Numbered from the stretch's first letter, positions 25,636 through 30,863 are shown. The stretch: DNA of 39,106 nucleotides from Promethearchaeota archaeon (GCA_048939765.1 JBHLPF010000013.1:1-39106), one strand, 5' to 3'. Notes: generated from the sequence alone by a model not told the origin. Translations and numbers: made by a program.

Positions 25636-25712
25636 GGGCCGATAGATCAGCCTGGCAGATCGTCTGGTTTGCATCCAGAAGGTCGCGAGTTCAAATCTCG
25701 CTCGGTCCACCA
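25636..25712 (+). tRNA. tRNA-Ala(UGC), intronless, CCA encoded
   Basis: Acceptor GGGCCGA/TCGGTCC with the G3:U70 Ala identity pair; D stem GATC/GATC; anticodon arm TCTGG-TTTGCAT-CCAGA; T arm GCGAG-TTCAAAT-CTCGC; ends ACCA. Confidence 0.97.
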
Positions 25713-25785
25713 ACTCCCCTAGCATTCTATACTGACTCATTGATTTTGGTGCGGTAACCTTTAATCTCTGGATACATTGGATGAT

Positions 25786-26226
25786 ATGGTTCAATTGGAG
25801 TCAGTATATCCTGATGACGATTCAGCATTGAGAAATGCTAGAAGAATCGGGCTAGTGTTTGTTGCCTACGCCATAGGCCTACCTATAATGAGTCTAGTGT
25901 TGGATGCCCAGTCTCCTCCAAGCACTGGATCACTCATAATATCATGGGTGCTGATTTTTATGATGCCTTTCGATATTCTCCTCTCCTACGCATCCTACCG
26001 GTTCTTTAACAAGAAAGGCAGATTCCAGAACATCATGGGTCCGGCTGTTCTCATGTATACATTTGGCACTGCACCATCAATCTACGCATTCGTGATAGGG
26101 TTCATTTACTCAGATCTGAGATATATTGCAATCCCGCTTGGTCTGATGTTCTCAATAGTAGGTCTTTGGCTAGTTTCTAATTTCCTATCCCGTCTTGGGG
26201 ATGCTTTGAAAGGTGCGAATCTCTAG
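25786..26226 (+). CDS. Small 4-TM membrane protein, unknown function
   Basis: Four hydrophobic segments; TTTAAT about 26 nt before ATG 25786, as expected for a leaderless transcript. Confidence 0.7.
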   Translation: MVQLESVYPDDDSALRNARRIGLVFVAYAIGLPIMSLVLDAQSPPSTGSLIISWVLIFMMPFDILLSYASYRFFNKKGRFQNIMGPAVLMYTFGTAPSIYAFVIGFIYSDLRYIAIPLGLMFSIVGLWLVSNFLSRLGDALKGANL

Positions 26227-26265
26227 GCAAGAGCAAAGCCGGATTTTGCTCAATCCTCAACCTTC

Positions 26266-27822
26266 CTATCTGGAACTAATTTTATCTTCGCATTTGCTTT
26301 CAGGGGGCATTCTCACCAATGCAATTTCGGCTTCTGCCGCATTCGTGAGGCAATCCCTTTGAGAGCGTTCCACGTTTCCATCGGTATCCTTGTACTTATA
26401 GCTCTTATGTGTCAAGGTTGATTCCTGTCTTGCTAGACTAGTTCTCTTCCGAATGTAAGCTCTAATCCCCTCCAAGATCTTCCCAAGTAAGTATACGTTC
26501 TTTGATTTGAGTTGACGCCAAATGACAGATGGACGTAGATAGAACTTGAAATATGCTTGATACAGTATTCTCTTGAGTTCCTTCTTACTGATAGCCGGAT
26601 ACTCCATGACTGGTGCCAGTACTGAATAGTCCCTCCACGATTCAGCCTTAAGCAATCCCTCCTTCTGGGCGTGTTCGAAGAGCGGTGTACCAGGGTAGGG
26701 AGTGCAAATTGTGAATTGTGCAATCTCAGGATTTAGACGGCATGCAATATCAATAGTTGACCTAGCTTCTTCTTTTGTCTCACCAGGATAGCCAAGCACA
26801 AAGGAGAATATTCTCTCGAGATTAGCCCATCTGGCAATTTCGTTTGCCTTCCAAACCTGGCTAATTGTGATTCCTTTTCGCATCATATCTAGAACTCTTT
26901 GATTTCCTGATTCTACCCCAATGTATACGGAACGACATCCTGCCTGCTTCAACCACCTAGCCATGATTGGATTATTGCATAGTATATCTGCACGTACAGA
27001 ACAAGTCCAATCTAGAGAGTAATTTCGCGTCTTCATTAACTCACAGATTTGTTTCACTCTCAAAGGATTGTAGCAAAATAGGTCGTCTAGGAACTCCAAC
27101 TCATTAATCTTGTATCTCTTAGCGAGTAAATCCACTTCTGCAATCACATTTTCAGCAGATCGGCCTCTCCATTTCTTTCCAGATGATCTCGATGAAGAAC
27201 AGAAAGTGCAACTATACGGACATCCTCTACTGGATATCATAGTGCCAACGCGAATTGGCTCCTGCAGATACTGATTCATATCCATCAAGTCATAGGCAGG
27301 GAACGGGAGTGTGTCTAAATCCTCAATCGGGCGAGATAGGGGATTCCGTTTAATTTCCGAACTTATCCGATATGTAATGCCCTTGACCTTTTCCAATTGA
27401 CCTGTTCCCATTCGTTCCAACAGATCTAACATGACATATTCGCCCTCCCCCCTCACGACAAAGTCAATTTGAGGTGCATCTCTTAGGATGAGGGCATCAG
27501 AGAAAGAGGCATGTGCTCCACCCACTACCACTCTGCAATCAATGTCAGTTTTTTTAGCTACTGCAGCCAATCTATAAACATCATAGATCGCAGGAGTAGC
27601 TTGAGCGCTGATTCCAACAACATCGGGTCTGAATCTCGACATTAATTCTGCAAACTCAGCATCATCAGTTTTGTGAAGCATTCCATCATGAATCACTACT
27701 TTATGGCTTCCAGACTCCCTGAGGTAACTTGCCAAATATCCAAGGCCAAGTGGAGGCGTAACAAATCCAAGTGAGTCTCTAATGTCATTGGGAGAGTAAG
27801 GAATCGTAAATAATACTCTCAT
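26266..27822 (-). CDS. Cobalamin-dependent (class B) radical SAM methyltransferase, Gmm (GMGT methylase)-like
   Basis: B12 domain (PPLGLGYLAS, GGAHAS, RGEGE); SRGCPYSCTFC; GVESG; GYPGET; AQFTICTPYPGT. The class is secure; the Gmm-like call rests on recalled similarity and adjacency to the Gms-like gene. Confidence 0.8.
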   Translation of the reverse strand: MRVLFTIPYSPNDIRDSLGFVTPPLGLGYLASYLRESGSHKVVIHDGMLHKTDDAEFAELMSRFRPDVVGISAQATPAIYDVYRLAAVAKKTDIDCRVVVGGAHASFSDALILRDAPQIDFVVRGEGEYVMLDLLERMGTGQLEKVKGITYRISSEIKRNPLSRPIEDLDTLPFPAYDLMDMNQYLQEPIRVGTMISSRGCPYSCTFCSSSRSSGKKWRGRSAENVIAEVDLLAKRYKINELEFLDDLFCYNPLRVKQICELMKTRNYSLDWTCSVRADILCNNPIMARWLKQAGCRSVYIGVESGNQRVLDMMRKGITISQVWKANEIARWANLERIFSFVLGYPGETKEEARSTIDIACRLNPEIAQFTICTPYPGTPLFEHAQKEGLLKAESWRDYSVLAPVMEYPAISKKELKRILYQAYFKFYLRPSVIWRQLKSKNVYLLGKILEGIRAYIRKRTSLARQESTLTHKSYKYKDTDGNVERSQRDCLTNAAEAEIALVRMPPESKCEDKISSR

Positions 27823-27834
27823 CCCTTAATCCCC

Positions 27835-29388
27835 TCAGCTGATGTCAGGTGCTGCTTTTGACTGTCCCTGCACTACTAGTTGAAGAGAGGGCTTCCTAGT
27901 CCTAATTGGAAATAGACCTTGCCAAGCGTCCCGATTATTGATACACCCAGGATCTGGTCCGAGATAATCATTGAAGTAGCCCAAAGCTCTTGCACGACAA
28001 CCACCACAGACATTTCTATGCTGGCACGATCCACATGCTCCTTTCAAGAGGTCCTTATTTCGTAAGTCACTTAGAATGTCTGAGTTGACCCAAAGGTCAT
28101 GAAAGTCATCTTCCAGTATATTGCCAATACGTACCTCAGGAATGTGCGGAAAGAAGACGCATGGATAGATGTCTCCATTTGGCTCAATCGCTACATAGAA
28201 CCGGCCAGCGCCGCAACCGCCAATGAACTCCGAGAGCTCCTTCATCTGAAAAGGCAAACGAGCATTGAAAAAGTGAGTGGGGTACACCTGATTATCAGCA
28301 TTGAGGGAGGAGGGAGTACACAAACTACAGGCTGCCTTCCGGGCAAGGCGGCCGAGCTGTGGTGCTGTAGTCAGCACTTCCATGCCTTCAGGGTCTTTTG
28401 ATGAAATCATATCCAGAATTTTCTGGAGCATGTTCTCCCTTTCATCAGGTGTGAGATCTGAATCAAGGATATCTAGTCCTCGACCAGTGGGTACAAAGTT
28501 ATAGACCATGAACCACTTGGCCCTAAGTTTTCTGCCGAGTTCAATGGTGTCGTGGAGCTCGACAAGATTGTGATGTGTGGCAGTCATTGCAATCTCAACG
28601 AAAAGACCCTCTGCCACACAGTTCTTGATTCCCTGAATTGCTCTTTCAAAAGCTCCGGATACACCCCGGAAACTATCATGAGTTTGCGAGTTAGCTCCAT
28701 CAAGGCTAATTTGCACAAACTTCAATCCAGCTCTCTTGAAGCGTTTCACACGCTCGAGTCTTGAGAAGGTATAACCATTGGTTGCCACTGCGACATACAT
28801 TCCTTTTCTTGTCGCGCTCTTGATTAGCTCCAGAATATCTGGCCTTAGAGTAGGCTCGCCACCAGAGAATGCCAGGAACACCACTCCTGCGTCTGCTAGC
28901 TTATCTATACATTCAAGAGCGTCGTTCGTGGACATCTCATCCGCAGTTCTTTCTCCAGCGCTTTCGTAGCAATGTTTACATCTTAGATTGCAAGCTCTGG
29001 TGATATTCCATACAACCTGAAAGGGCGACCCCGGAACAAATGGAGTTCTTGCGCCAAACTTGACCAAACCCGATATTACACTTGATAGCGATTTTCTGAA
29101 TATGGGATTACCAAGGCCAGTTATGATCGAATCCAAGTCGGTGCCGAAGGTATCTGCACCTGCGGAGATAACACGGCGGATAAGCTTTGCTACAAATCTA
29201 CACAAGAAGCACGATTTCAATCTTGTTCCTGCGATTAGTTCAAGTGCAACATTGAGCCGCCGATCACCACATGCTCTGCATCTCTTTGTAACCCGGCCCA
29301 AAATTGGACGGACCAAACGGCTCTTCGAAACTGCGTCCAATACGCCTGCTTTTGTGACTTCTTCATTCACACCTTCCGTCAACGACAC
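27835..29388 (-). CDS. Radical SAM/SPASM protein with N-terminal extension, Gms (GMGT synthase)-like
   Basis: CNLRCKHC, SGGEP, NFVPTGRG, TTAPQ and EFIGGCGAGRFY motifs; SPASM CGSCQHRNVCGGCRARA...DPGC; ~120-aa N-terminal extension containing CRAC...CFLC. Start uncertain. Confidence 0.8.
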   Translation of the reverse strand: MSLTEGVNEEVTKAGVLDAVSKSRLVRPILGRVTKRCRACGDRRLNVALELIAGTRLKSCFLCRFVAKLIRRVISAGADTFGTDLDSIITGLGNPIFRKSLSSVISGLVKFGARTPFVPGSPFQVVWNITRACNLRCKHCYESAGERTADEMSTNDALECIDKLADAGVVFLAFSGGEPTLRPDILELIKSATRKGMYVAVATNGYTFSRLERVKRFKRAGLKFVQISLDGANSQTHDSFRGVSGAFERAIQGIKNCVAEGLFVEIAMTATHHNLVELHDTIELGRKLRAKWFMVYNFVPTGRGLDILDSDLTPDERENMLQKILDMISSKDPEGMEVLTTAPQLGRLARKAACSLCTPSSLNADNQVYPTHFFNARLPFQMKELSEFIGGCGAGRFYVAIEPNGDIYPCVFFPHIPEVRIGNILEDDFHDLWVNSDILSDLRNKDLLKGACGSCQHRNVCGGCRARALGYFNDYLGPDPGCINNRDAWQGLFPIRTRKPSLQLVVQGQSKAAPDIS

Positions 29389-29426
29389 CTACTTGGTTTG
29401 ATATCCAAAGCGGGGGCATTGAGACG

Positions 29427-30020
29427 CTACCTGCTGCCATTGGATTCGAGAATGCCCCCTGTGAAAACATCGAGGAAGTCATCAAAGGCCTTCTCATGGT
29501 CATCAATGAATTCTTCACCAAAGAGGAGTTCCGCCATCCGGCTGAAAGAAATATAGCTCAAGAGAATGAGTGCTGCAGCCTTGGGGTCTATCTTCCGGAC
29601 AGTCCCTTTTCGAATCTGCTCTTCAAAGTACTTTGTCAAGCTTTTCAAGATCTGCTGGGGGACTGAAGACAGTGACTCAGCGACCGAAGGTAGTCTCAGA
29701 CCTTCGGCATACTGCAAAATCATGAGGTCCTGCTCTTTCCTTGTGAACTTGATCAGATTATGGCCAAATGCTCGAAGAGCGTTCTGGACAAACGAGTCTT
29801 TATCCAAATCAAAGATAGGTTCTAGGGATGCGAGTGCGTTTGCTTTTGTATTGGCTATGACCGTTTCCATCAATCTGCCCTTCGTCTTATACTTCCTGAA
29901 CAATGTGACCTCGTTCACACCAGCGTTCTCCGCAATCCTCTTTGTCGTTGCGGCATTGTAGCCATGCTGGACGAAGAGGTTCTTTGCTGCTTCTAGGACT
30001 CTTTCCTCGACTGATTTCAT
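29427..30020 (-). CDS. TetR/AcrR family transcriptional regulator
   Basis: VLEAAKNLFVQHGYNAATTKRIAENAGVNEVTLFRKYKTK helix-turn-helix. Confidence 0.95.
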   Translation of the reverse strand: MKSVEERVLEAAKNLFVQHGYNAATTKRIAENAGVNEVTLFRKYKTKGRLMETVIANTKANALASLEPIFDLDKDSFVQNALRAFGHNLIKFTRKEQDLMILQYAEGLRLPSVAESLSSVPQQILKSLTKYFEEQIRKGTVRKIDPKAAALILLSYISFSRMAELLFGEEFIDDHEKAFDDFLDVFTGGILESNGSR

Positions 30021-30052
30021 TTATGCAAGTAAGTGCTTGCTTGCATAATAAA
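30021..30052 (-). promoter_or_regulatory. TetR operator palindrome and TATA box of the tetR/radical SAM operon
   Basis: TTATGCAAGTAAGT|GCTTGCTTGCATAA (30021-30048, arms match 12/14) abuts the ATG. Minus-strand TTTATTA at 30052-30046. Confidence 0.8.
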
Positions 30053-30215
30053 TGTGTTCCTCAGAGCAATATTGAATCTTGCCGTTCCTTTGATACGAAA
30101 TATAAGACTCAAATGTACAAAAGATAGTTGTTCAACGCTGCTAGTTGATGAAAACTGAAATGCTCGATGGCCCGAAGAGTGGATAGATCCACGAAATTCA
30201 ATATAGATTACAGGG

Positions 30216-30233
30216 TCAAATCACGCTCGGTCC
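30216..30233 (+). repeat. att-like copy of the tRNA-Ala 3' end
   Basis: 17/18 identity to 25691-25708, followed by GTCA where the tRNA has ACCA. Confidence 0.75.
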
Positions 30234-30241
30234 GTCACTTT

Positions 30242-30703
30242 CTAGTATGACCTACGAAGCGGGGAGCCTCCCATGGCCATCTTCCCATCGACCACGATGC
30301 AGTCCCTGCACGTTGCTTGGTTTGCATAGACAATCATGTATCCAACATGAGCAGTCTCTCTTGAGTCTTGATTTGTCGATATTACGAGTCCACAGGAGGT
30401 AGCATACAATCCTGACTCAGATTTTCTCTTCAAGGACTTTCCTGAGTGTATTGATTCGCCAGCCTTTGTGAAAAAGGGAATTCTTTCTTCGACACTTCCA
30501 AGAATCCTCGCACCGCAATAGGTTATAGTGATACCAGCGAGAAATAACGCCATTAGACCCTGGATGTCAGATGTTGTAGGACCAACTTCGCCAGAGTTCC
30601 TGTAGAAGATGGAGACCCCCATTATGGGTATGGAAAACACTAGTATGAATAAACCACTGGTGACCAGTCCTTTGCCAATCAAGCGAAAGAGTCTATCTTT
30701 CAT
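30242..30703 (-). CDS. Hypothetical 2-TM protein with Cys-containing C-terminal domain
   Basis: Two TM segments, then TSCG...TCRDC. Probable ATG at 30703. Confidence 0.6.
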   Translation of the reverse strand: MKDRLFRLIGKGLVTSGLFILVFSIPIMGVSIFYRNSGEVGPTTSDIQGLMALFLAGITITYCGARILGSVEERIPFFTKAGESIHSGKSLKRKSESGLYATSCGLVISTNQDSRETAHVGYMIVYANQATCRDCIVVDGKMAMGGSPLRRSY

Positions 30704-30863
30704 CCAGCTTACTCTTCCGTCCTTATATTGGATGAATAGCAATATCACGTTTTCGCAACATCATGGTCTTTCATCTTGAGTTAGTTGTTGACTCCAATCT
30801 AGGTCAATGAATCCAATGGAGTCATTTCTGCTCCATCTTCCCATAACGGGTTGAAATTCTAAT

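Follow-up and report, generated by a model that had tools for sequence, protein, structure and literature searches.

A putative TetR-controlled gms-gmm lipid operon beside tRNA-Ala in a Thor-type Asgard archaeon

Introduction

Gms is an AhbD-like radical S-adenosylmethionine (SAM)/SPASM enzyme with an extra N-terminal domain of ~100 amino acids (PMC11214058, PMC11186832). That extension is COG4001, a domain that AhbD lacks (PMC11214058), and six N-terminal helices have been described for Gms (PMC11186832). Gmm is the neighboring B12-radical SAM methylase; gms-gmm clusters have been published for Thorarchaeota, and the Asgard sequences reported number 23 for Gms and 26 for Gmm (PMC11214058). 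Glycerol monoalkyl glycerol tetraethers (GMGTs) serve as sediment biomarkers, whose producers beyond the cultured thermophiles are inferred from gene presence only.

We describe here a tetR-gms-gmm operon in a 39,106-nt stretch of DNA from a Promethearchaeota archaeon (contig C80; JBHLPF010000013.1 of assembly GCA_048939765.1), the whole of which is called the window. By homology its two enzymes fall in the Gms and Gmm families already in print, for which this phylum and class were listed before, and the locus adds a well-supported Thor-type Asgard example to those listed in the 2024 papers. What sets it apart are a dedicated TetR with a conserved operator, a cysteine knuckle in Gms's N-terminal domain, and placement at a hotspot marked by tRNA tails. 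The operon is probably native to its genus, TetR-repressed and dedicated to GMGT cross-linking and methylation, and has moved to a site beside a tRNA-Ala gene.

The operon

The assembly has 3.37 Mb in 108 contigs (47% GC) and is 88.5% complete. The host is an Asgard archaeon, as the first-pass annotation, made from the window's sequence, had proposed, and is of Thor type; it is mesophilic, sediment-type and uncultured, which sets it apart from the hosts of the characterised Gms. The operon features are as follows.

26266-27822, minus strand: gmm, 518 amino acids, B12-binding and Radical_SAM domains (Pfam PF02310 and PF04055)
27835-29388, minus strand: gms, 517 amino acids, Radical_SAM and SPASM domains (Pfam, and comparison with characterised Gms)
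29427-30020, minus strand: tetR, TetR-family regulator, 197 amino acids, first gene of the operon (Pfam)
30021-30048, no strand assigned: 28-bp imperfect palindrome TTATGCAAGTAAGTGCTTGCTTGCATAA, putative TetR operator (upstream alignment)
30046-30052, minus strand: TTTATTA, a TATA-box-like heptamer (read from the sequence, putative function)

The three genes lie on one strand, with gaps of 38 nt (tetR-gms) and 12 nt (gms-gmm). The congeners compared include a near clade of G005, G015, G001 and G002 (ZPR1 83-92% identical) and a far clade (G011, G007, G012 and G006, with ZPR1 65-70% identical, and also G004). Both sub-clades keep the order and spacing of tetR-gms-gmm, in two unrelated genomic contexts.

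Gms homologue

Two characterised enzymes served as references, T. guaymasensis Gms (Tg-Gms, WP_062369926.1, L068:6692-8131) and P. furiosus Gms (Pf-Gms, AAL80771.1, L072:2800-4443). They were reached by a scan for the Thermococcales family-B DNA polymerase (PolB) motif, which led to Thermococcus loci, then by family searches and exact accession look-up; a profile search aimed at Thermococcales returned members from Thermoplasmata, DPANN and Methanomicrobia. The third described enzyme, M. okinawensis Gms (METOK_RS04425), was sought by its published cysteine numbering among 270 homologues, with no match. Cluster look-up of representative homologues gave nearly nothing but metagenome proteins without a name.

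Garcia et al. (2024) accept as Gms a protein of at least 400 amino acids with E <= 1e-80 to Tg-Gms. The window's gms product (P0001, 517 amino acids) has 40% identity to Tg-Gms (371 bits, E 3e-128, residues 17-492) and 36% to Pf-Gms (E 6e-113) in pairwise comparison, almost over the full length; the Tg-Gms match also scores E 8e-113 in the genome search. P0001 and Tg-Gms are reciprocal best hits in the window's genome, where the runner-up reaches only 1e-29. The motifs NFVPTGR, TTAPQ and EFIGGCGAGR, which the first-pass annotation had named for the family, are indeed present in both Tg-Gms and Pf-Gms.

The architecture is that described for Gms (PMC11214058, PMC11186832): a six-helix N-terminal domain, a CX3CX2C radical SAM core, a bridging region and a SPASM domain with seven cysteines. 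The core starts near residue 125 by Pfam, which is also where the AhbD profile begins, and the extension that precedes it aligns with the N-terminal domains of Tg-Gms and Pf-Gms. An AlphaFold2 (AF2) model (predicted local distance difference test [pLDDT] 87, predicted template modeling score 0.88) places six helices at residues 13-111, with pLDDT mostly above 88, before the radical SAM barrel. The N-terminal extension thus stands as a Gms feature, as had been supposed. All 40 homologues compared, Tg-Gms and Pf-Gms among them, keep the core cysteines (C133, C137, C140) and the seven of SPASM (C392, C410, C452, C455, C461, C464, C482). A sequence search of PDB found no solved structure of Gms, AhbD or Gmm, the best matches being PqqE and AprD4.

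A quick-search tree of 54 rows, its outgroup rows classed by NCBIfam and lacking the M. barkeri AhbD, sets a 44-row clade of N-extended proteins apart from AhbD-, NirJ2- and TIGR04053-like rows (Shimodaira-Hasegawa-like approximate likelihood ratio test 98). P0001 falls with Tg-Gms in a 31-row core (support 95), and Pf-Gms branches deeper in the same clade, so that the window protein is bracketed by two proven enzymes. Direct comparison, tree and predicted architecture together support P0001 as a Gms homologue, as first assigned, one that would convert glycerol dialkyl glycerol tetraether (GDGT) to GMGT. Looking for tes elsewhere in the genome, a check the first-pass annotation had suggested, showed Tes to be encoded at C87:10226-11872 (NF045702, 628 bits against a cut-off of 450), making a supply of GDGT substrate plausible.

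The N-terminal domain of P0001 has a knuckle, C-x2-C...C-x2-C, at C37, C40, C60 and C63 (window 29200-29280), which may be an extra metal site; the Gms papers (PMC11214058, PMC11186832) contain no discussion of it. The genome encodes a second N-extended radical SAM/SPASM protein, very divergent and outside the Gms clade; this protein and the two further B12-radical SAM proteins mentioned below are encoded at C85:10593-12080, C14:994-2352 and C55:4012-5520. No homologue of the 540-amino-acid radical SAM protein beside T. guaymasensis gms, presumed to be a Grs, was found in the window's genome.

Gmm homologue

The reference here is WP_062369928.1 (L068:8131-9516), confirmed by accession look-up and named Tg-Gmm in a preprint (10.1101/2025.10.20.683597); a Gmm is expected to have E <= 1e-65 to Tg-Gmm, at least 400 amino acids, and B12-binding plus radical SAM domains. 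The window's gmm product (P0002) has 518 amino acids and both domains, and its residues 1-450 match the whole length of Tg-Gmm at 37% identity (E 5e-114). The two are reciprocal best hits, the genome's runner-up scoring 3e-56, and matches of P0002 to the Pgm-type methylases of T. aggregans and T. sibiricus score only E 4e-59 to 3e-65; P0002 is thus far closer to Tg-Gmm than to the Pgm type or to the genome's other B12 enzymes. As in T. guaymasensis (PMC11214058), gmm lies immediately downstream of gms, and this order and adjacency recur in P. kukulkanii and in the Thor family genera g1, g22 and g26. The case for P0002 as a Gmm homologue, which the first-pass annotation had proposed as a fitting neighbor, is good on these comparisons, if less complete than that for Gms.

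Two further B12-radical SAM proteins of the genome are 32-34% identical to Tg-Gmm and are candidates for other lipid tailoring, Ted- or Grs-like. One g22 genome, G304, carries a lone gmm (L074:7430-9682) that is 77% identical to the window's gmm, versus 48-53% for other g22 genomes. The gene could represent a transfer of gmm between genera. With no gms at its side, it is paired divergently with another TetR_N-domain gene, which makes it a second and independent link of a TetR to gmm.

Thermococcaceae have two distinct types of Gms. Proteins of metagenome-assembled genomes (MAGs) labelled Cloacimonadota or Hydrothermae fall in the same 90% clusters (P0524, P0539) as the Gms and Gmm of T. guaymasensis type, and that type of Gms is 70-85% identical to MAG proteins of Thermoplasmata, Aenigmarchaeota and Methanophagales. 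These similarities across phyla could come from recent transfer among vent organisms or from binning carry-over.

Regulator and operator

The tetR product matches TetR_N (PF00440, 47 bits) and TetR_C_7 (PF14246, 30 bits), both above cut-off. The gms-gmm pair also occurs in the sister genera g22 and g26, where no homologue of the window's TetR was found at E <= 1e-25. Upstream regions of tetR, 200 nt each, were aligned for seven genomes. A block directly before the tetR ATG, TTATTATGCAAG(C/T)AAG..CTT(A/G)CTTGCATAA, is nearly invariant in all seven; the rest of the intergenic DNA gives no alignment between the sub-clades, and the TetR proteins themselves are only ~65% identical. The window's version is the 28-bp palindrome, unique in the genome, whose end lies 1 nt ahead of the tetR start codon; that of G011 is a perfect palindrome with 13-bp arms. 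The heptamer TTTATTA (-32 to -26 relative to the ATG) runs over the palindrome's outer edge and sits at the distance expected of an archaeal TATA box, which would imply a leaderless transcript.

This has the classic layout of a TetR autorepressor, set on what appears to be an archaeal promoter. TetR, QacR and AcrR likewise have an N-terminal TetR helix-turn-helix and a helical C-terminal domain, with a ~28-bp palindrome over their own promoter and regulated genes that concern membrane or hydrophobic chemistry. The window's regulator differs from them in its archaeal promoter, where a TATA-like box goes with a start that is probably leaderless, and in being the first gene of its own operon instead of divergent from it. 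The conserved operator-like palindrome lends substance to the TetR control that the first reading of the locus had suggested, and leaves it plausible.

TetR control of gms-gmm was met nowhere in the literature searched; the one paper there that mentions both GMGT and TetR uses TetR as a genetic tool. Published work reports temperature and amphiphile effects on lipid profiles only, with no regulator, and the operator and TetR would give a concrete handle on the signal that turns on GMGT formation. Lipid methylation is induced by amphiphiles in other archaea (10.1101/2025.10.20.683597), which makes an amphiphile or lipid a reasonable guess for the TetR ligand.

The tRNA-Ala site

The operon lies in an islet, between a tRNA-Ala gene and a decayed copy of that gene's tail, with these further features.

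25636-25712, plus strand: tRNA-Ala with anticodon TGC, anchoring the variable site on its left; the sole tRNA called by ARAGORN
25691-25708, plus strand: proximal 18-nt T-loop/acceptor tail copy, within tRNA-Ala (repeat search)
25777-26226, plus strand: gene for a small membrane protein, 149 amino acids, convergent with gmm, in the variable slot of the hotspot
30216-30233, plus strand: decayed tRNA-Ala tail copy (17/18) at the distal end, marking the islet's right border
30242-30748, minus strand: fast-evolving membrane protein of 168 amino acids, just beyond the islet, no family match

The layout given by the first-pass annotation holds throughout: tRNA-Ala, the 17/18 tail copy, the gene order with its two gaps, and the lack of an integrase among the islet genes scanned with Pfam. 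Its description of the 149-amino-acid protein as having four transmembrane segments is approximately right, in that three hydrophobic segments are strong and a fourth is weaker. That protein has no Pfam family, and its gene has no paralogue in its own genome and is absent from the far-clade cassette loci.

The near clade has the cassette at the same place, following ZPR1 and tRNA-Ala. tRNA-Ala follows ZPR1 in all congeners examined except G004, in which neither tRNA-Ala nor pyrophosphatase was detected downstream of ZPR1. The slot from the tRNA to gmm varies: it holds the membrane protein gene in the window, a class I methyltransferase gene in G005 and G015, nothing in G001, and in G002 a gene for 533 amino acids with no Pfam family match. 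In G005 and G015 a homologue of the 149-amino-acid gene (59% identical) stands on tetR's opposite side. That this arrangement arose by circular permutation of an islet of the G005 type was ruled out, the two 4-TM genes having only 68% DNA identity against 87% for the adjacent operon. In G005 (L023:5980-6858, L023:11781-12905) and G015 the islet has a class I SAM methyltransferase downstream of gmm and an alpha/beta hydrolase beyond a 152-amino-acid gene, neither of which is in the window.

Relatives were also checked for a tRNA-Ala site without the cassette, and such sites were found in the far clade and in G014 (ZPR1 82%). In the far clade tRNA-Ala is followed by unrelated genes and then, where the contig reaches (G011, G007, G012), by pyrophosphatase. 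In G014 it is followed by a 166-amino-acid gene, an exact tail copy and a paralogous 143-amino-acid gene, and no Gms was found in the G014 genome (80% complete). Far-clade tetR-gms-gmm is found elsewhere, in a context that is syntenic in the four genomes examined (G011, G004, G012, G006). The corresponding site of the window's genome is empty: its flanks are contiguous on C46 (C46:64676-65104, ~430 nt between), with seven left-flank genes and the right-flank genes syntenic and only a small conserved open reading frame (ORF) and ~150 nt between them. No remnant of operator or tail was found at this site (C46:64601-65200). The cassette is thus not syntenic genus-wide; since two locations are reciprocally filled and empty, the tetR-gms-gmm module moved as a unit within the genus.

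The tail repeat is an 18-mer, TCAAATCTCGCTCGGTCC, which spans tRNA-Ala from T-loop to acceptor end (25691-25708) and recurs with one mismatch 4525 nt downstream (30216-30233). At up to three mismatches 0.04 matches are expected by chance in the window, and two matches occurred in 0 of 100 shuffles. G005 has the orthologous copy at the same right border (L023 11236-11253), also with one mismatch, at a different base; the G015 copy at the equivalent border is decayed. In G014 the copy is exact and covers 43 nt of the tRNA's 3' half, and the duplication there begins exactly at the anticodon, with ~80% identity continuing into the genes. Conservation in G005 and the extended exact copy in G014 rule out chance as the origin of the repeat.

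Three minor points concern this site. The G014 region (L030:6480-7820) is a tandem duplication running from the tRNA-Ala anticodon into the two paralogous membrane-protein genes (166 and 143 amino acids). The fast-evolving membrane family to which window 30242-30748 belongs directly follows the tail copy in the window, G005 and G014; the 168-amino-acid protein has 37-44% identity to its homologues in G005, G015 and G014, compared with 82-95% for flanking genes. In G015 and G001 (L024:7165-7250, L036:1457-1563) an intron of ~30 nt follows the anticodon of the orthologous tRNA-Ala(TGC), which is intronless in the window, G005 and G014, so that a single genus is polymorphic for this intron.

Origin of the module

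In the tRNA islands of tyrosine-recombinase elements, attL and attR are duplications of the tRNA 3' end, islands may grow by tandem accretion, and the anticodon is a classic crossover zone. The first-pass annotation had accordingly taken the operon to be horizontally acquired. On that account an integrase-borne mobile element would have carried the lipid operon in from another lineage by site-specific integration at the 3' end of tRNA-Ala, leaving the islet as its remnant and the 18-nt copy as attR. The islet does resemble such islands: a tRNA 3' direct repeat with attL/attR geometry brackets variable DNA and is kept in G005, the G014 duplication starts at the anticodon, nearly every genome has its own gene in the slot beside the tRNA, and the module is not at the tRNA-Ala site in far congeners or G014.

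The cargo, however, looks native. Near- and far-clade Gms are sisters (support 99), joined next by g22 (including Thorarchaeota SMTZ1-45) and then by g26; identity declines with taxonomic distance (82-89%, 63-68%, 59-63%, 41-54%), and the tree is congruent with genus and family. The near-clade TetR, like Gms, is closest to that of the far clade of the same genus. GC content and codon usage, which the first-pass annotation had proposed to compare across the islet borders, likewise speak against foreign origin, the islet having 45.2% GC against 47.0% for the genome and gms having codon usage typical of the genome; only gmm stands out, being low in GC at third codon positions (GC3).

Of the marks of a tRNA island, border direct repeats are present, matching at 17 of 18 positions in the window and in G005 and exactly over 43 nt in G014; no recombinase gene and no sign of foreign cargo was found. 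No integrase was found by Pfam in the islet or in the relatives' islet genes scanned, and PF00589 gave no match in the whole genome (88.5% complete; serine recombinases and SSV-type integrases were not searched for separately). A split integrase of the SSV type at the borders was ruled out, the border ORFs being the membrane protein and tetR, with the repeat outside the 168-amino-acid ORF. The window's repeat is short (18 nt) and decayed, and in G014 the tail copy flanks only one small gene, so scars exist at the tRNA-Ala site independently of the operon and need not stem from its arrival. The operon may have made the window's scar on arrival or used an older one.

We consider arrival on a foreign element unlikely, and the module to be native to this Thor-type genus on the sequence comparisons. 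The picture of an islet anchored on tRNA-Ala thus survives in part: the site is variable and marked by a cast-off tail, and the module did change location, whereas its arrival from outside is not borne out.

Activity of the pair

Several points count against the reading of the locus as a native, repressible operon for GMGT formation and methylation. The knuckle of the Gms N-terminal domain (four cysteines, or Asp as the second residue), found in 28 of 40 sampled homologues, occurs in neither Tg-Gms nor Pf-Gms. We infer the identity of the product from sequence for an uncultured organism, and infer TetR binding, repression, the ligand and the leaderless start from the layout upstream of tetR. 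Nor is the direction of the move polarised, since the contexts of the pair in g22 and g26 are different again. The other points concern gmm. Relatives in the Gmm family have other activities, including the GDGT methylases Cgm and Pgm and the desaturase Ted (10.1101/2025.10.20.683597), and the references compared were Tg-Gmm and the Pgm type of T. aggregans and T. sibiricus, not Cgm, Ted, MoeK5 or Gmm2. The Gmm tree (20 rows), which lacks resolution at its base, does not group near-clade gmm with that of the far clade, and gmm lies at the 4th percentile of the genome in GC3. Higher divergence between near and far clades (49-51% identity for gmm, 64-68% for gms), grouping of near-clade gmm with the lone G304 gene (77%) and the low GC3 suggest that gmm may have a partly separate history.

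It is on these gmm points that another account rests, in which P0001 is a true GMGT synthase and the B12 enzyme has a different lipid activity, such as methylation of unbridged GDGT or archaeol, or Ted-like desaturation, and was maybe replaced by the allele of another Thor lineage. P0002 also differs from Tg-Gmm by a C-terminal extension of ~50 amino acids, and the near-clade allele is unusually diverged from its congeners. Its similarity to Tg-Gmm, however, is well inside the Gmm thresholds of 1e-65 and 1e-70 used by the authors of the family, Ted lying at ~1e-60; the 12-nt gap and the gms-gmm order match the characterised pair, and the tree nodes on which a replacement would depend lack resolution. 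We therefore doubt that P0002 has another activity, and favor its role as a GMGT methylase.

That the pair acts outside lipid metabolism, as an AhbD- or NirJ-like heme or heme d1 enzyme or a maturase of ribosomally synthesized and post-translationally modified peptides with a B12 methylase for the peptide or cofactor, is very improbable: neither protein passes any NCBIfam model, and the best profiles (NirJ2, AhbD and TIGR04053 for P0001; BchE, HpnJ and ApyD for P0002) all fall below cut-off, P0001 reaching only 252 of the 500 bits required for AhbD and Tg-Gms giving the same pattern, while P0001 has a ~120-amino-acid N-terminal domain not in AhbD and branches with Gms, the pair is syntenic with the characterised Thermococcus pair, and no precursor-peptide gene was seen between or beside the genes, ORFs under 60 amino acids not having been searched.

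Proposed pathway

In the native operon as we picture it, Gms would act on GDGT made by Tes, joining the two biphytanyl chains into the H-shaped GMGT, with its N-terminal helical domain presumably binding the lipid; Gmm, a B12-dependent radical SAM enzyme, would then methylate the GMGT chains. One leaderless promoter, whose TATA-like box and start site are covered by the palindrome, most likely serves all three genes. By binding there, a TetR dimer would keep its own operon repressed until a ligand, probably hydrophobic or amphiphilic, releases it. In the window's sub-clade the module would have passed as a unit, by whatever recombination mechanism, into the variable spot beside tRNA-Ala, one marked by cast-off tRNA tails where unrelated small genes appear to be swapped in and out.

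A bolder version, which we offer tentatively and think rather doubtful, is that TetR is a dedicated sensor of membrane state, with a tetraether or amphiphile ligand that de-represses GMGT formation, and that the module hops by way of cast-off tRNA tails without an integrase of its own. If true, this would be the first defined ligand-gated transcriptional switch for remodelling of archaeal membrane-spanning lipids. Relocation of the module within one genus matters for the use of gene presence or absence as a proxy for lipid production.

Short polymerase contigs

Contigs of 372-682 bp (L041, L046, L048, L062) with the Thermococcales family-B DNA polymerase motif occur in Paraburkholderia, Clostridiales and Chryseobacterium assemblies, and look like carry-over of polymerase gene DNA from reagents.

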